Assembly (NCBI GenBank): GCA_963825055.1
Contig: CAWGSK010000030.1
Coordinates: forward strand, 18,882-82,881
Length of the DNA stretch: 64,000 nt
From: an uncultured Gemmatimonadales bacterium
Lineage (GTDB): Bacteria; Gemmatimonadota; Gemmatimonadetes; Gemmatimonadales; GWC2-71-9
Direction: 5' to 3'
The position numbers were made by a program, and so were the translations under genes. Every line of letters starts with the position of its first letter. Position 1 is the first letter of the stretch. Below, piece after piece: positions 538 to 59,951 of the stretch. The notes beneath the pieces were generated by a model, which was not told the origin of the DNA, searched no databases, and saw nothing but the letters and a program-made list of their open reading frames with translations.

Positions 538-770
538 TTTGGACGGATCCTCGTGGGGGACGGGGTCAGGAGGTCAGGAAGTCGGGAGGTCGGGCACTCG
601 GGAAGCGGGAGTTTGTTGCCTGACCCTGAACGAAGAGGGAAAGCGGCATTATCTTAGACGCCTGCCCGAACCGGGTCCGGCGTAAGGTGGCGCCGACACT
701 ATCCGTTGACAAGGTACGGCGGCGCGGGCCCCGCACTGCCACGGCCGGGGCATGTTGCCATTCGGACACC

Positions 771-16583: not shown

Positions 16584-16655
16584 GGCGGTGAAGACGGTCA
16601 GGACGGTCAGGGCGGTCTGGGCGGTCTGGGCGGTCTTGTCCGTCCTGTCCGTCAT
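16584..16655. repeat. Tandem 9-nt repeat array (8 units) forming an imperfect palindrome at the 3' end of the M24 peptidase gene
   Basis: Units are GGCGGTGAA GACGGTCAG GACGGTCAG GGCGGTCTG GGCGGTCTG GGCGGTCTT GTCCGTCCT GTCCGTCAT. The outer units are inverted copies: GACGGTCAGGACGG versus CCGTCCTGTCCGTC, with 1 mismatch. Confidence 0.8.
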
Positions 16656-24649: not shown

Positions 24650-24734
24650 CCGCCGCCTTGCTGGGGCCGGGCCCGGCCCCTAAATTGGCCGCCGTTGTGT
24701 GGTTCCCCTCCAACTCCAACGCGGGATTGTCCTG

Positions 24735-25424
24735 ATGCCGTCGTTACCTCGCCGGGCGGTCGCGGAGCTTGTCGGTACCTTCGGGCTGGTTTTCATCGGC
24801 GCCGGCTCGGTCATGATGAGCACGTACGCCGGAACGAACTACGGGCTCCTTGGGATCGCCCTGGCGCACGCGGTGGTCCTGTCGGTCATGGTGACCGCCA
24901 CGATGAACATCTCCGGCGGGCACCTGAATCCCGCGGTCACGGTCGGCTTCATCGTGACGCGCCGTATCGACGCGATATCGGCCATCACCTACCTGCTGGC
25001 CCAGCTCGCCGGCGCCGTCCTCGCCGCCGCCCTGCTGCACTACTTCATCCCCGCCAACCTGTCGCGCGTGGGCGCGCTGGGCACCCCGCTCATCTCGGGG
25101 AACGTCACGCTCGGCATGGCGATCGGCCTCGAGGCGGTACTCACCTTCTTCCTGGTGTCGGCCGTGTTTGGCACCGTCGTCGCGGTTGACGCCCCGAAGG
25201 TCGGCGGTTTCGGTGTCGGCCTCGTGCTGCTGTTCGACATCCTGGTGGGCGGCCCGCTGACCGGCGCGGCCATGAACCCGGCACGCGCCTTCGGCCCGGC
25301 CCTGGTCAGCGGGACATGGACCGGACACGTCGCCTACTGGGCGGGACCGCTCCTCGGCGGGATCGTCGCGGCGCTGTTGTGGGACCTGGTGCTGCTGAGG
25401 GAAACGCATGACCGGAAGGTGTGA
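24735..25424 (+). CDS. aqpZ: Aquaporin / MIP-family channel
   Basis: Two NPA boxes are present (SGGHLNPAVT and AAMNPARAFGP), with six hydrophobic segments. The probable start is ATG 24735 within ORF 24699..25424. Confidence 0.9.
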   Translation: MPSLPRRAVAELVGTFGLVFIGAGSVMMSTYAGTNYGLLGIALAHAVVLSVMVTATMNISGGHLNPAVTVGFIVTRRIDAISAITYLLAQLAGAVLAAALLHYFIPANLSRVGALGTPLISGNVTLGMAIGLEAVLTFFLVSAVFGTVVAVDAPKVGGFGVGLVLLFDILVGGPLTGAAMNPARAFGPALVSGTWTGHVAYWAGPLLGGIVAALLWDLVLLRETHDRKV

Positions 25425-25428
25425 AAGA

Positions 25429-25512
25429 AGTGAATAGTGAGTAGTGAGTAGTGCTTCAGTGCCGGGATCCCGCCTTAAAGCACTAATCACCACCCACTAT
25501 TCACTATTCACT
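25429..25512. repeat. Heptad-repeat palindrome (AGTGAGT units) between convergent genes
   Basis: Left arm: AGTGAAT AGTGAGT AGTGAGT AGTGCTT. Right arm: AAGCACT AATCACC ACCCACT ATTCACT ATTCACT, its imperfect reverse complement. The loop is about 21 nt. Confidence 0.85.
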
Positions 25513-25638
25513 ACGCACCGCTTTCTTCTCCTGCCGCCGCGTCCGCACCACCAGGCTCACCGTGTAGCTCAGGTAAACCACCGCCGTCACGATGTAGGCC
25601 GCCACCATGTAGCTGCCGTTGTCCGGAAGGCTATGCAC
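25504..25638 (-). CDS. ccmD: Candidate heme exporter protein CcmD (small single-TM protein)
   Basis: It is below the ORF-track size cutoff. My own translation from GTG 25638 gives VHSLPDNGSYMVAAYIVTAVVYLSYTVSLVVRTRRQEKKAVRSE; ATG 25608 is an alternative start. It has one TM segment followed by a basic tail. It sits immediately after ccmC and overlaps the ccmC stop. Confidence 0.5.
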   Translation of the reverse strand: MHSLPDNGSYMVAAYIVTAVVYLSYTVSLVVRTRRQEKKAVRSE

Positions 25639-28522: not shown

Positions 28523-28952
28523 GTTTCCTCCGCCACCCGGAAACGAGCAAAGCGTGGGGGGTCCACGCCGCTCCTATGGCTGAACGCACCACGCTTTCGC
28601 GTTGCATTCCACCTTCGGCACCGAGCTATCTCCCATCGGGAGACCTCTGGTTTTGCGGCCCCGGATCGCTCCGGGTGTGCTCTTATCGGGCGGATCAATT
28701 GTCTGCGAGCCTTTCGGGCCCGCGGTCACTGTAGATGGCGAGACGGGTGCCAGAACCCAGACCGAGTTGTGCCCCAACGACTTAGGAGCGCCGTGCAATA
28801 GCGTGCGCAGGCCTTTTCCCTAGCACTCCGCCTGTGGCGTGGGAGAACTGCAACGCGAAAATCAGCACTCCCGAACGGGCCGTTCCCGTTTACATATGTA
28901 TGGTACCGTGTCGCAGGACATCACTGGCCGTCCCCCAACCAGACGGAACACC

Positions 28953-30905
28953 ATGAGCGACCAACTCGACACCCTTCTTTCCGAGCAGCGCAGCTTCCCG
29001 CCCGACCAGGCCTTCCAGGACCAGGCCAATGCACAGCCGGAGATCTACGATCGCGCCGCAAGGGACCGGGAAGCCTTCTGGGCCGAGGAGGCCAGGGCCC
29101 TGGACTGGATCACCCCCTGGACGACGGTGCTGGAGTGGAAACGCCCCCATGCGAAATGGTTCGTGGGCGGCACACTCAACGTTTCCGCCAATTGTCTCGA
29201 CCGGCACCTGGCCGGTCCACGGCGCAACAAGGCCGCGCTCATCTGGGAGGGAGAGCCCGGCGACCGCCGGGTCCTGACGTACCGTGACCTCTGGCGCGAA
29301 GTGAACCGGGCTGCCTCCGGGCTCAAGAAGCTCGGCGTGAAGAAGGGAGACCGGGTCGCCATCTATCTGCCCATGATCCCCGAGGCCGCCATCGCCATGC
29401 TGGCGTGTGCCCGGATCGGGGCGGTGCATTCGGTGGTCTTCGGCGGCTTCTCCGCGGAGTCCCTCCGGGACAGAATCAATGACGCGGAGGCCAAGGTCCT
29501 GATCACGGCTGACGGCGGGTACCGGCGGGGTGGGATCGTACCCCTCAAACGGTTTGCCGACGAGGCCGTGAAGGAGTGTCCCTCCATCCAGCACGTGGTG
29601 GTGGTTCGCCGTCGCGCCGGGTCCGAGGGCGACGAGGCCTTTGCGTCCTTCAACGAGGGCCGGGATCACTGGTGGCACCGCCTGCTGGATTCCGCCGAGC
29701 CCCGCTGCGAGCCCGAGCCGATGGACGCCGAGGACATGCTGTTCATCCTCTATACGTCCGGCACCACCGGGAAGCCCAAGGGCATCGTCCATACGACCGG
29801 AGGCTACCTCACGCACGTCACTGCCACCACGAAGTACGTCTTCGACCTGAAAGACGAGGACGTCTTCTGGTGCTCGGCGGATGTCGGCTGGGTGACTGGG
29901 CACTCCTACGTGGTCTATGGCCCGCTCGCCAACGGGGCCACGGTCCTCATGTACGAGGGGGCCCCTGACTGGCCGGAGCGCGACCGGTTCTGGGATATCA
30001 TCGAGAAGTACGGCGTCACGGTGTTCTACACCGCCCCCACCGCAATCCGCGCTTTCATGAAGTGGGGCGACACCCACCCGGCAAAGCATGACTTGTCCAG
30101 CCTCCGCCTTCTCGGCACCGTGGGTGAGCCGATCAACCCGGAGGCGTGGATGTGGTACCACCGGCACATCGGTGAGGAACGGTGCCCCATCGTGGACACC
30201 TGGTGGCAGACCGAGACCGGAGGCATCATGATCACGCCGTTGCCCGGAGTCACCGCGACCAGGCCCGGCTCGGCTACCGTACCGTTCCCGGGCATCTGCG
30301 CGGAACTGGTGGACAGCACCGGGAAGGCCATTCCCCAGGGCGGCGGCTTCCTGACCATCACCGAGCCATGGCCGGGGATGCTCCGGACGATCTACGGCGA
30401 TGACGAGCGCTACCGGGAGACGTACTGGAGCCGGTTCCCCGACCGCTACTTCGCCGGCGATGGTGCCAAGCGGGGGGAAGACGGCTACTGGTGGATCCTG
30501 GGCCGGGTGGACGACGTGCTGAATATCGCCGGGCATCGGATCGGCACCATGGAGGTCGAGAGTGCGCTGGTGGACCACCCGGCCGTAGCCGAGGCGGCCG
30601 CCGTCGGCAAGGCGCATGAACTCAAGGGCCAGGCCCTGGCGGCGTTCGTCACGCTGAGGGAAGGCCGGGACCCCACCGACGAGCTGAAGGATGACCTGAA
30701 GGAGCACGTCGTCACCAAGATCGGGGCCATTGCCCGCCCGGACGACATCATCTTCACCGCGGACCTCCCCAAGACCCGGAGCGGGAAAATCATGCGCCGG
30801 CTCCTTAAGGACATCGCCGAGGGGCGGGCGCTGGGTGACACCACCACGCTGGCGGACCCCAACGTGGTGCAGGCGCTGAAGGAGAAGTACGAGGGGAGTG
30901 AGTAG
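28953..30905 (+). CDS. acs: Acetyl-CoA synthetase
   Basis: The AMP-binding motif [11 protein letters not shown] is present, along with WWQTETGG and [14 protein letters not shown] 28953 gives [17 protein letters not shown]... Track ORF 28839 starts upstream of this. Confidence 0.95.
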
Positions 30906-31021
30906 TGGGTAGTGAGTAGTGCTTTAGGGAAAGTCCCCTGCACAATGGGCAGCCCCGATCGCGATGCTTCCGCGCGGCAGTGAAGCCTGCCACAAAGCTA
31001 CTCGCTACTCACTACTCACTA
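30897..31021. repeat. Heptad-repeat palindrome (AGTGAGT units), same family as 25429..25512
   Basis: Left arm: AGTGAGT AGTGGGT AGTGAGT AGTGCTT (30897..30924). Right arm: AAAGCTA CTCGCTA CTCACTA CTCACTA (30994..31021). The loop is 69 nt. The acs stop TAG (30903..30905) and the kup stop TAG (31019..31021) both lie inside the arms. Confidence 0.85.
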
Positions 31022-32926
31022 CAACTGTATCTGCGCCCCCATCTCCACCACCCGGTTCGGCGGCAGGCCGAAGTAGGCGGTGGCGGTGCGGGCGTTTCGC
31101 GTCATGATGATGAAGAGTCGTTTGCGCCAGCCCGCCATCTTCGACTTGCCGGTGGGAAGCAGGGTCTCCCGGCCCAGGTAGAAGGTCGTCTCCATCAGCT
31201 TGATGGAGAGGCCACGGGCCTCGAGGATTCGCAGCACCGCCGCCATGTCCGGCGACTCCATGAAACCGTAGCGGACCAGCACCTGGAGGAATCCTTCGGT
31301 CAGCGGCTTGATCTCCACCCGCTCGGTTTCTGGGACGGTCGGGATCTCATCCGACACGAAGCTCATCAACAGCACGCGCTCGTGCAGCACCTTGTTGTGC
31401 TTGATGTGATGCAGGAGCACCGGCGGCGCGCCGCTCACGTCGGAAGTCATGAAGACGGCGGTGCCCGGGACACGCGCGGGCTGGCGGCGGGCGATGTCCC
31501 CCAGAAAAAGGTCAATCGGCAGGGAGTTGCTGCGCATGATGCTGGAAAGGAAGAACCGTCCCCGCTTCCAGGTGGACATCAGGACGAATATGATGCCCGC
31601 CACCATCAGTGGGAACCACCCGCCATGGGGAATCTTCACGAGGTTGGCGAGCAGGAAGGCCAGGTCGACGAAGAGCAGGGCCGCCCCGAGGATGGCCACC
31701 CGCCACCAGCCCCATCGCCACCGCTCCCGCGCCACGGCACAGAAGAGAATTGTGGTGACAGCCATGGTACCCGTCACCGCCACGCCGTAGGTCGCGGCCA
31801 GTGCCGAGGAGGTCCGGAAACCCAGCACCAGCCCCACGCAGGCGATCCCGACGGCGATGTTCACCTCGGGGATGTAGATCTGCCCGACCTCGGTCTCCGA
31901 GGTGTGCACAATGGTCACGCGCGGGCTGTAGCCGAGCTGGACGGCCTGCTGGGTCAGGGAGAACGCCCCGGAGATCAGCGCCTGCGACGCCACCACCGCG
32001 GCAGCCGTCGCAATGCCGATCATGGGATACAGCGCCCACCCCGGGACCAGCGAATAGAACGGATTGACCGCCGCGGCCGGATTGCGCAGTAGCAGCGCCC
32101 CCTGGCCGAAATAGTTGAGCAGGAGGGCAGGCAGGACGAAACAGAACCAGGCGAGGCGGATCGGCCGCTTGCCGAAATGTCCCATGTCGGCGTAGAGGGC
32201 CTCGCCGCCGGTAACCACCAGGACCACCGCCGCGAGGACGAGGAACCCCGTCTTCCCCTCCCGGCTCAGGAAATCCACCGCGTGGAGCGGCGACAGGGCG
32301 CGGAGGACGTCGGGCTCCTGCAGGATCCCATGCACGCCCAGGGCCGCAATGCACACAAACCACACCGACGTCACCGGCCCGAACATCTTGCCGACCGCCG
32401 CGGTCCCGTGCTTCTGCACCGCAAACAGCCCGACGATGATGACCAGGCTGATCCAGATGACCCAGTGCTGGAGCGCGGGCGCGGCCACCGCGAGCCCCTC
32501 CATCGCCCCGAGGACGGAGATGGCCGGCGTGATGATGCCGTCCCCGTAGAGGAGCGCGGAGCCGAACAGCCCGGCCATGATCAGGAGCCAGCGGCGCCCG
32601 CGGACGTTGACGCGCGGGCGGAGGAGGGCGAGCAGGGCCAGAATCCCACCCTCGCCCCGGTTGTCCGCCTGCATCATGAACCCCAGGTACTTGAAGCTCA
32701 CAATGAAATTGAGTGACCAGAAGATCAGCGACAGGACCCCCAGCACGTTCGCCGGGGATGCGGTGATACCGTAGACGCCGTAGAAGCACTCCCGCAGGGC
32801 GTACAGCGGGCTGGTGCCGATATCGCCGTACACCACGCCCAGGGCGGCAAAGGAGAGAAAAAACAGGGCCTTGCCCCGCGGGGACGGGGCGTCGGGCCCT
32901 TGGGGCGGCAGGGGCGTCTCACTCAT
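31019..32926 (-). CDS. kup: KUP/HAK/KT potassium uptake transporter
   Basis: The family motif GVVYGDIGTSPLYAL is present. The protein has about 12 TM segments and a cytoplasmic C-terminal domain. ATG 32926 overlaps the stop of the VKOR gene (ATGA). Confidence 0.9.
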   Translation of the reverse strand: MSETPLPPQGPDAPSPRGKALFFLSFAALGVVYGDIGTSPLYALRECFYGVYGITASPANVLGVLSLIFWSLNFIVSFKYLGFMMQADNRGEGGILALLALLRPRVNVRGRRWLLIMAGLFGSALLYGDGIITPAISVLGAMEGLAVAAPALQHWVIWISLVIIVGLFAVQKHGTAAVGKMFGPVTSVWFVCIAALGVHGILQEPDVLRALSPLHAVDFLSREGKTGFLVLAAVVLVVTGGEALYADMGHFGKRPIRLAWFCFVLPALLLNYFGQGALLLRNPAAAVNPFYSLVPGWALYPMIGIATAAAVVASQALISGAFSLTQQAVQLGYSPRVTIVHTSETEVGQIYIPEVNIAVGIACVGLVLGFRTSSALAATYGVAVTGTMAVTTILFCAVARERWRWGWWRVAILGAALLFVDLAFLLANLVKIPHGGWFPLMVAGIIFVLMSTWKRGRFFLSSIMRSNSLPIDLFLGDIARRQPARVPGTAVFMTSDVSGAPPVLLHHIKHNKVLHERVLLMSFVSDEIPTVPETERVEIKPLTEGFLQVLVRYGFMESPDMAAVLRILEARGLSIKLMETTFYLGRETLLPTGKSKMAGWRKRLFIIMTRNARTATAYFGLPPNRVVEMGAQIQL

Positions 32927-33357
32927 GCCGCCATCCGGGGGCGCGAGGATCGCCAGGCAAGGAGGGAGGCGATGAACAGCAGCAGGACGATGACCGCCGA
33001 CCCGACGCACCAGCGGCAGATGGCATGGATCACGAACAGTTCGAGCGCGGTGAGGTACGCGGCAAACGCGAGCGCGCCACCACTCAGGGCCACCAGTACG
33101 GCATCGGGCCAGGTCCGCCCGGCGTAACGGGCGGACAGTCCGGCGAGGGCCACGCCCAGCATCAGGACGTATCCCACCAGGCCGATGAGCGAGACCTCCA
33201 CGCCAAGGAACCGGGCGTATGGGCTCAGTTGAACGGTCTCACACCCGCCAGTACCGCACGCCAGCGTGCCGATGTACCCGAGCTTGTACAGGTAGAGGTA
33301 GGCCGCCACGAACACGCCCGCGAGGCTGAGGATGGCGGCCGCCATCCGGTATTTCAT
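32923..33357 (-). CDS. Vitamin K epoxide reductase (VKOR) family protein
   Basis: 144 aa with 4 TM segments. The loop cysteines are CGTGGC and the active-site CXXC is CRWC. Confidence 0.8.
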   Translation of the reverse strand: MKYRMAAAILSLAGVFVAAYLYLYKLGYIGTLACGTGGCETVQLSPYARFLGVEVSLIGLVGYVLMLGVALAGLSARYAGRTWPDAVLVALSGGALAFAAYLTALELFVIHAICRWCVGSAVIVLLLFIASLLAWRSSRPRMAA

Positions 33358-36319: not shown

Positions 36320-36778
36320 ATGGACCTCACGCTGCTGCGCCAGACCGCCATCTTCGCCGACATTGACGACGGCGAGATCATGCGCGTCGCCGAAACCTGC
36401 CAGGAGCTCACGTTCGGTGGAGGAGACTTCGTGTTCCACGAAGGGGAACCCGGCAACCGGCTGTACATCGTCGCCGAAGGCGAGGTACGAATCAGCCGCA
36501 ACATTCCAGGCTCAGGCGAGGAAGCCCTCGCGGTCCTGAAACCCGGCGCGTGTTTCGGGGAGATGTCGGTCTTCGACCGTTCCCAGCGGTCCACCGATGC
36601 GATCGCCAATGGGCCCTGCCGCCTCATCTCCATCTCCCGATCCGATTTCGAACTCCTGCTCGACTTCAACCGCGAGCTCGCTCACAAGGTGCTCTGGTCC
36701 GTTGTCCGGCTGCTCTCCACGCGGCTCCGCGTTACGAACGATAACCTCCGGACCTTCCTGGCGATGTCGATGTTCTGA
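36320..36778 (+). CDS. Cyclic nucleotide-binding domain protein (no DNA-binding domain)
   Basis: 152 aa with the cNMP-binding core GEPGNRLYIVAEGEVRISR...GACFGEMSVFD. Confidence 0.8.
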   Translation: MDLTLLRQTAIFADIDDGEIMRVAETCQELTFGGGDFVFHEGEPGNRLYIVAEGEVRISRNIPGSGEEALAVLKPGACFGEMSVFDRSQRSTDAIANGPCRLISISRSDFELLLDFNRELAHKVLWSVVRLLSTRLRVTNDNLRTFLAMSMF

Positions 36779-36850
36779 CAGACGGACAGACGGACAGGCG
36801 GTCAGTCGGTCGGTGGGTCCGCCTGACCGCCCGTCCGCCCGTCCGTCCCG
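36779..36850. repeat. Tandem 8-nt repeat array (9 units) forming an imperfect palindrome
   Basis: Units are CAGACGGA CAGACGGA CAGGCGGT CAGTCGGT CGGTGGGT CCGCCTGA CCGCCCGT CCGCCCGT CCGTCCCG. CAGGCGG (36795..36801) pairs with CCGCCTG (36819..36825). The right arm encodes the last ~16 aa of the M16 peptidase. Confidence 0.8.
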
Positions 36851-59874: not shown

Positions 59875-59951
59875 AGGTCGAAAATCCAAGGTCGAAGGTC
59901 AGGGGTCGAATAGCTCTTCGACTTTCGACCTTCGACCTTCGACTTTCGCTT
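59875..59951. repeat. Heptad-repeat palindrome (AGGTCGA units) between convergent genes
   Basis: Left arm: AGGTCGA AAATCCA AGGTCGA AGGTCAG GGGTCGA A. Loop: TAGCTC. Right arm: TTCGACT TTCGACC TTCGACC TTCGACT TTCGCTT. Confidence 0.85.

Follow-up and report, generated by a model that had tools for sequence, protein, structure and literature searches.

The DNA analyzed here, in the following called the window, is a stretch of 64,000 nt from an uncultured Gemmatimonadales bacterium (contig CAWGSK010000030.1, positions 18,882 to 82,881). Within the window, an acetyl-CoA synthetase-like gene (acs) and a gene for a Kup potassium transporter (kup) converge on a palindrome of 126 nt (window 30896-31021). 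It is composed of two 28-nt arms with four heptads of the TAGTGAG type each, which are separated by a loop of 69 nt. This arrangement of inverted tandem heptads had been described in an original prediction made from the letters alone, and the sequence is as described. The prediction had also placed the stop codons of both genes within the arms, and both are indeed found there: the TAG of acs (30903-30905) is located in the second heptad of the left arm, and the TAG of kup (31019-31021) in the outermost heptad of the right arm. The palindrome is a real, non-random element. It had been described correctly, but was over-interpreted as a purpose-built module for translational stop and transcriptional termination.

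An inverted-repeat search with the acs/kup palindrome recovered a core of 23 nt that is 91% complementary, with 78 nt separating the two cores, and Tandem Repeats Finder (TRF) reported 3.6 copies of a 7-nt unit per side. In the window, the heptad pattern is matched 10 times, versus an expectation of 0.57. The prediction of RNA folding, which had been proposed as a check, yielded a stable stem for both strands, with -66.3 kcal/mol for the plus strand (z about -5.5) and -64.4 kcal/mol for the minus strand (z about -5.0). In the forward reading of tandem TAGTGAG, TAG occurs at the unit offsets 0, 7, and 14 and TGA at 3, 10, and 17, and thus a stop is present in each frame. The earlier claim of TAG or TGA in all three frames is arithmetically right, within three units of forward TAGNGAN heptads. 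The unit has no run of GGG, and the G-tracts of a G-quadruplex are absent. The 69-nt loop contains no open reading frame (ORF) and hence no ORF for a four-helix-bundle protein of the family PF05635 / TIGR02436, the 23S rRNA intervening-sequence (IVS) protein. A second copy of the loop was not found in the genome (self-match alone at E<0.1), nor did it have similarity to other hairpin loops or to the interiors of the PF05635 cassettes treated below. An Rfam scan of the region 30500-31400 yielded nothing beyond chance-level miRNA matches.

Comparison with related genomes revealed the history of the gene junction. The genes acs and kup are convergent in eight genomes of the family. In four of them the stop-to-stop spacer has a length of 1, 9, 10, and 21 nt and does not contain a hairpin, and in 12 metagenome loci it ranges from -4 to 23 nt. 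Because the relatives have a spacer of 1-21 nt without a hairpin, the palindrome is an insertion. As the relatives keep the gene pair without the hairpin, neither a terminator nor an additional stop is required at this site. The C-terminal residue of Kup and the position of its TAG are the same in seven of the eight family genomes, and 16 of 24 metagenomic relatives without the element also use TAG as the kup stop. The kup TAG is regarded as ancestral and as doubling as the outer heptad, because it is conserved at the same position in relatives that do not have the element. The 3' end of acs, with the codons for the final Ser-Glu and with the TAG stop, overlaps with the left arm. The C-terminus of the protein reads ...YEGSE*, compared to ...YEGQES*, ...YEADEG*, and ...YEDKE* in relatives, which represents a cost of about one residue. 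The notion that the element supplies both stop codons therefore holds true for acs, but not for kup. A metagenome scan with the Acs C-terminus retrieved relatives of at most 85% identity, and no filled or empty alleles of the same species were found.

Other arrays occur at the same site. At the 3' end of acs, about 17 of 79 metagenomic relatives as well as the genomes G015 and G016 contain other 7-8-mer arrays or hairpins with different units, which start about 3-15 nt past the acs stop. The array loci are L050 (G016), L054 (G015), and L057 (G012), and, among the metagenomes, for example L107, L110, L139, L144, and L153. The unrelated units of other lineages include GCGGGGAA, GGAATGGC, GTCGGACA, and GGAATGTT. 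In G015 and G012, acs and kup are about 640-650 nt apart, including an extra ORF. The acs/kup junction has been colonized repeatedly in different lineages.

The genome is a metagenome-assembled genome (MAG) of 3.53 Mb with 68% G+C, which is distributed over 35 contigs. In the whole genome, TRF identified 552 arrays with a period of 7 and 230 arrays with a period of 8, and about 199 inverted array pairs are present. These comprise 120 non-overlapping hairpins with a short gap and a median fold energy of -52 kcal/mol, the arms of which are inverted arrays of 7-nt (sometimes 8-9-nt) units. The acs/kup palindrome is not a one-off, because about 120 hairpins of inverted arrays exist in the same genome, and its membership in a dispersed family is established. 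The arrays contain between 2 and 15 units, and the numbers often differ between the two arms. At least seven unit classes can be discerned, i.e., TAGTGAN, GGGAGTA, GTGGCAA, CGGTGAA, GAGTGGTT, GAGGTCGA, and GGCGGTCR. The TAGTGAN type accounts for 40-42 of the roughly 120 hairpins, and 40 of these have in common the innermost variant unit and a palindrome, TAGTGCTTCAG...CTGAAGCACTA, while their loops are unrelated and vary in length between 6 and 110 nt. At 149 sites, two or more TAGNGAN units form a run, with TAGTGAC (122) and TAGTGAG (116) as the most frequent units, followed by TAGGGAG (86), TAGTGAT (51), and TAGCGAG (29). Tandem TAGTGAG, TAGTGAC, and TAGGGAG occur 50-59 times each, versus 0 for five permuted control heptads. 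The polarity of the TAGNGAN pairs is nearly uniform: 29 read inward from both sides, with the stops facing incoming genes, versus 1 in the reverse orientation. Position 7 of the unit differs between the arms in 24 of 44 TAGNGAN hairpins, which results in a mismatch every 7 bp. Positions 1-3 and 5-6 (TAG.GA.) are nearly fixed, and many stems consist of 6-bp segments interrupted by single mismatches.

The phylogenetic distribution of the repeat is patchy. The TAGTGAS unit was detected in six of 301 genomes of the phylum and is abundant in just two, the genome under study (G000) and G188, a genome of a different family, of which 769 kb were examined. An exact 22-mer had no match in 40 close relatives, and among 185,579 species genomes it was found in three unrelated MAGs only, which belong to the Alphaproteobacteria, the Gammaproteobacteria, and Gallionella. 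Hairpins in the Gallionella MAG (L007 5190-5340) and the Alphaproteobacteria MAG (L005 6930-7070) have arms that mix AGTGNNN units, such as GGTAAGT, GGGGAGT, TAGCGAA, and TAGTGAG, and the AGTG core recurs across phyla. Within the genome under study, identical TAGTGAG hairpins including their flanks are present on contigs C12 (548376-548486) and C21 (19036-19146), which probably represent a duplicated region or redundancy of the assembly. On contig C3 (86250-86524), an inverted TAGTGAT/TAGTGAG pair surrounds 219 nt with a glycine-rich, membrane-like ORF of 67 codons, for which no Pfam match was found. The pair may have a different cargo, or it may consist of two independent arms.

The hairpins are not randomly distributed with respect to genes. 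Of 113 hairpins, 46 are located at a convergent junction, versus a background of 14% (p about 1e-11), and divergent junctions are under-populated (p=5e-4), with 10 copies found there. For hairpins in tandem contexts, the upstream stop is 4 nt away in the median, and the downstream start 139 nt. Where at least 100 nt were free (37 sites), 23 hairpins are no more than 15 nt away from the stop, and none comes this close to the start (p=4e-22). The results were similar for G188, in which 26 of 29 hairpins are found at most 15 nt from a stop, and the comparison of stop and start yielded 9/12 versus 0/12 (p=9e-10), including the stop-free GCTATTG class. In both genomes, the median distance to the upstream stop is 4-6 nt for all hairpin classes. 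In the genome under study, roughly one third of the hairpins are stop-free (40 according to the unit of the left arm, 46 when stops are required on both arms), and these are equally close to stop codons. Adjacency to stop codons is therefore a property of the whole hairpin kind and not of the TAG-bearing unit, because the stop-free classes adjoin stops equally. A genome-wide census had been suggested as a check of the earlier reading, with a lack of enrichment at gene ends as the result that would speak against it; array hairpins turned out to be enriched at gene 3' ends throughout the genome.

The contribution of the stop triplets themselves was also quantified. Forty-four of the 149 TAGNGAN runs hold the stop codon of a gene that reads into them, and the in-frame stop is found in the first, second, and third unit at a ratio of 26:14:4 (p=3e-4). 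Compared with the remaining hairpins, those that carry stops on both arms are more frequently situated at convergent junctions (35/74 versus 11/46, p=0.012), and their overlap with ORF ends is also more frequent (50/108 versus 12/45, p=0.03). In the independent cassette units of relatives, stop triplets are, by inspection, about as frequent as expected by chance. The all-frame stops look like a permissive by-product, because about a third of the hairpins is stop-free and stop triplets are near chance level in the cassette units. Thus, they look like a property that widens the range of sites at which a copy survives, and not like the reason for the existence of the element. For the TAACTGA repeats it has been pointed out that all-frame stops restrict where such repeats can sit (MacGregor, 2015; PMC4679880).

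The arms of the hairpins recur around a family of protein-coding genes. The genome contains eight PF05635 genes. Inverted array pairs separated by gaps of 413-492 nt also number eight, and they are exactly the pairs that enclose these genes, with a different unit for each of them. The cassette on contig C13 (112600-113162) holds a PF05635 ORF and is built from TAGTGAC units and the inner unit TAGTGCT, as in the acs/kup arms. For 101 of the 120 hairpins, the unit is at most one mismatch away from a cassette unit. Bracketing of PF05635 genes by inverted arrays was found with a strict test at 28 of 46 loci. These come from additional genera and families within the order, and from the three MAGs that have the exact 22-mer (Alphaproteobacteria, Gammaproteobacteria, and Gallionella). 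The only PF05635 gene of the Alphaproteobacteria MAG is flanked by arms of the TAGTGAG type, which resemble those of the empty hairpin in the same MAG. The hairpin classes of G188 are GCTATTG (21 hairpins), TAGTGAC (13), and GCTGCGT (3), and each of them matches the unit beside one PF05635 gene. Because the same arm design brackets all eight PF05635 genes, the acs/kup copy is best interpreted as an IVS-type cassette with heptamer arms in its empty form. In the literature on PF05635 / TIGR02436 we found no paper that links this gene family to genome-wide heptamer hairpins.

The canonical features of a transcriptional terminator are lacking. In the region 30400-31500 no terminator-like sites were found, and no U-tract follows the stem. 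The element does not have the short G+C-rich stem followed by a U-tract that characterizes an intrinsic (Rho-independent) terminator, and genome-wide, 23 of 240 stem ends have at least five T within the next 10 nt. A terminator-like effect of the hairpin, or an effect as an RNA barrier, is conceivable.

The features discussed here are compiled in Table 1. Further arrays and hairpins in the window exemplify the diversity of the family. The hairpin of the short-loop subfamily begins 4 nt past the TGA of a MIP/aquaporin gene (24699-25424) and supplies no stop. An array of (GGTCAGGA)x3.5 at window positions 564-603 is situated between divergent genes and represents a minority case that does not adjoin a gene 3' end.

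Table 1. Genes, palindrome parts, and related repeats (window positions, unless a contig is given).
Feature	Position	Strand	Remarks
acetyl-CoA synthetase-like gene (acs)	28839..30905	+	Pfam AMP-binding, AMP-binding_C, ACAS_N; start codon according to ORF call
kup potassium transporter gene	31019..33010	-	Pfam K_trans, K_trans_C; ends ...GAQIQL-TAG
left arm of palindrome	30896..30924	+	four heptads, (G)AGTGAG TAGTGGG TAGTGAG TAGTGCT(T); unit register by inspection
loop of palindrome	30925..30993	none	69 nt; three small internal hairpins predicted
right arm of palindrome	30994..31021	-	minus-strand reading TAGTGAG TAGTGAG TAGCGAG TAGCTTT; outermost TAG is the kup stop
9-mer array pair	16584..16653	none	GGCGGTCAG... 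/ GTCCTGTCC...; related to GGCGGTCR class
TAGTGAN-class hairpin, short-loop subfamily	25429..25513	none	inner palindrome TAGTGCTTCAG...TAAAGCACTA
8-mer array hairpin	36776..36850	none	GACAGACG... / CCGCCCGT...; first unit overlaps TGA of ORF 36320-36778
hairpin, AGGTCGA / CTTCGAC class	59875..59948	none	stop-free unit, 15-nt gap, between convergent genes
PF05635 genes	C12:281050, C13:276166, C13:112759, C7:210428, C9:7481, C2:172520, C12:680432, C7:175804		outside the window

Taken together, the palindrome is probably an ORF-less heptamer hairpin of the IVS type, a repeat that was inserted between acs and kup and whose stop-rich arms allow it to overlap with the gene ends. In this model, the element would have entered the ancestral spacer of 1-21 nt between the two convergent genes. 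Its two inverted heptad arrays would let the DNA or the RNA fold into a long periodic stem. The arms could abut or overlap the ends of ORFs at almost no cost for the proteins, and they would be tolerated there because an inward-reading TAGNGAN array has TAG or TGA in every frame. Accommodation at this site would have turned the ancestral kup TAG into the TAG of the outer heptad, while acs would have acquired the arm-encoded end Ser-Glu-TAG and become about one residue shorter. After transcription, the stem of about -65 kcal/mol may act like a repetitive extragenic palindromic (REP) element less than 16 nt from a stop codon. It may form a 3' barrier to exonucleases and would be a likely substrate for RNase III, and it could possibly also slow down terminating ribosomes or read-through transcription. 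Any function of the hairpins is thus probably REP-like.

Several observations weigh against this explanation or weaken it. Neither movement nor a mobilizing enzyme was seen. Inspection of the flanks did not reveal an evident target-site duplication, with degenerate outer units that blur the boundaries. The loops of the TAGTGAN hairpins have no similarity to the interiors of the eight cassettes, and the idea that the hairpin loops are decayed cassettes was rejected for this reason; a derivation of empty hairpins from cassettes by deletion is thus hypothetical. The proteins of the TAGTGAC cassettes in the genome under study and in G188 are just 39% identical, and PF05635 proteins with the same unit are only modestly more alike than others (0.41 versus 0.31, p=0.035); with this weak overall correlation, a strict protein-to-unit specificity was discarded. 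The enrichment at convergent junctions is not seen in G188 (3/35) and was dropped as a general rule. The stabilities of sense and antisense stems do not differ for 57 hairpins in tandem contexts (p=0.12), which led to the rejection of RNA-level selection on the transcribed strand. Because a strand-specific signal of stem stability is lacking, an RNA function is not demonstrated. The MAG is 87% complete with 6% contamination, and the gene calls are crude ORF picks based on the G+C content of third codon positions with a coverage of 78%, so that the distances to start codons are approximate.

Four other explanations were considered. The original prediction of a dedicated module, i.e., a palindrome selected as a translational stop for all frames and both directions and as a transcriptional terminator for the two convergent genes, appears unlikely. 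Several parts of it stood, namely the inward stops in all three frames of both arms, the location of both gene stops within the arms, the polarity of 29:1, and the association with gene 3' ends. The high stability of the stem on both strands and the enrichment of hairpins with stops on both arms at convergent junctions (p=0.012) are also in agreement with it, and starts or ends of transcripts in Xanthomonas are more frequent at heptamer repeats than at controls (PMC4692102). However, the idea of a purpose-built module did not hold for a dispersed family, about a third of which has stop-free units and is found equally near to stop codons, and of which 10 copies lie between divergent genes. Furthermore, relatives have the same gene pair with a spacer of 1-21 nt and no hairpin, the kup TAG is ancestral, a U-tract is missing, and 24 of the 44 TAGNGAN hairpins are mismatched every 7 bp. 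It is possible, albeit doubtful, that the palindrome is a co-opted REP-like post-transcriptional element, the stem of which stalls terminating ribosomes, protects the 3' end of the upstream mRNA, and tunes the expression of acs and kup. This would be compatible with a selfish origin. The median distance of 4-6 nt from the upstream stop, which applies to all hairpin classes in two genomes, and the skew of the in-frame stop towards the first heptad (26:14:4) are in line with such a role, but the stems have no sense-strand bias, and the adjacency to stops could instead reflect the targeting of insertions or survivorship where spacers are short.

The two remaining explanations concern the origin of the arrays. 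Growth of local microsatellites, in which replication slippage of a chance heptamer near a stop gave rise to the arrays in place and without a mobile element, is very unlikely. Slippage would account for unit numbers that vary from 2 to 15 and are often unequal between the arms, for the variable heptamer number of Coxiella strains (PMC4990558), and for the arrays of different units at the acs 3' end in about 17 of 79 relatives. It would not explain that the innermost variant unit and the palindrome are common to 40 copies, that nearly all pairs have the same polarity, that the pairs are matched and inverted, and that a genome has few unit classes, each matching a PF05635 cassette; and a loop of 69 nt cannot be derived from an ancestral spacer of 1-21 nt. 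Mobilization as a REPIN (a hairpin-forming pair of REP sequences) or as a classical miniature inverted-repeat transposable element (MITE) by a REP-associated tyrosine transposase (RAYT) or another transposase is extremely improbable, although the elements are high-copy, extragenic, palindromic, and 3' of genes, and the genome contains two Y1_Tnp (PF01797) genes. Neither of the two is bracketed by inverted arrays, and the RAYT/REPIN candidate was rejected on this basis. In addition, the arms are tandem arrays and not a REP motif of 20-40 nt, no element was found that combines these ends with a transposase, and target duplications were not evident in the flanks.

Tentatively, hairpins of heptamer and octamer arrays might form one two-part genetic system with the PF05635 genes, similar to REPINs and RAYTs. 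Within a genome, every unit class of hairpins would be paired with an armed PF05635 gene of its own; the genome under study has seven such classes and eight genes, and three classes are matched in G188. A process linked to translation termination or to gene 3' ends would place the empty hairpins a few nt from stop codons, or allow them to survive only there, and classes with stop-bearing units such as TAGTGAG could then merge with the stop codon itself. It has long been noted that bacterial genomes contain an unexplained excess of 7-nt tandem repeats. The genome analyzed here is an unusually rich case, with about 120 hairpins in a handful of classes that are matched to the arms of PF05635 genes and that start at a median of 4 nt past stop codons. 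It therefore makes three points testable in one organism, namely a possible recognition of arrays by the four-helix-bundle protein, the spread of hairpins, and a possible effect of a stem at the stop codon on translation termination or mRNA decay. The results also entail a warning for genome annotation, as some genes owe their TAG stop and their final few codons to a repeat, which affects at least 44 genes in the MAG.

Inverted heptamer repeats have been described before. Rehm et al. (2015; PMC4692102) reported inverted heptameric G-rich repeats, GGGAATC in Xanthomonas and GGGGAYT in Nostoc, which consist of 2-26 tandem units, with 70-75 convergent inverted pairs per Xanthomonas genome. The Xanthomonas repeats are found at or over stop codons, are transcribed, and are under-represented between divergent ORFs. 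The hairpins described here share with them the tandem 7-nt units, the inverted orientation of two arrays, the adjacency to stops, and the scarcity between divergent genes. However, the repeats of Rehm et al. (2015) form G-quadruplexes and are stop-free, while TAGTGAG has no G-tracts and stops in all frames. They also occur in a different phylum, and that paper draws no link to PF05635.

The ORF-bearing IVS of 23S rRNA genes in Coxiella burnetii and Leptospira has terminal inverted repeats with a stem of about 28 bp (Warrier et al., 2016; PMC4990558). In Coxiella, the stem region contains tandem heptamers in a strain-variable number, a PF05635 gene is present in the loop, RNase III cuts midway along the stem, and mobility of the element has been suggested. 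The long stem formed by terminal inverted repeats with tandem heptamers is shared with the family described here. In contrast to the IVS, the acs/kup copy has no ORF and lies between protein-coding genes instead of within an rRNA gene, and about 120 copies are present in one genome; processing by RNase III would apply here by analogy. The TAACTGA repeats of Beggiatoaceae, cyanobacteria, and Bacteroidetes also have stops in all three frames of the forward reading (MacGregor, 2015; PMC4679880), like the forward reading of TAGTGAG. However, they are direct repeats (with one inverted case), are mostly located just upstream of start codons, and do not form hairpins.

REP elements that are less than 16 nt away from a stop codon stall ribosomes and protect mRNA 3' ends, according to the statement in PMC12306157 that refers to Liang, Rudd, and Deutscher (2015). 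Like REPs and their bacterial interspersed mosaic elements (BIMEs), and like the REPIN-RAYT system (PMC3116915), the hairpins are high-copy extragenic palindromes that are mostly 3' of genes and occur as inverted pairs, together with a single-copy gene that is bracketed by the same repeats. In contrast to these systems, the arms are tandem arrays and not a fixed REP motif, and the bracketed gene encodes a non-catalytic four-helix bundle and not a Y1 transposase. Inverted ends as in MITEs are present, but a transposase-bearing relative was not found. The heptamer hairpin as such thus belongs to a kind that has already been published, and the more interesting lead is the quantitative picture, with hairpin classes that match armed PF05635 genes and a close association with stop codons that does not depend on the unit.

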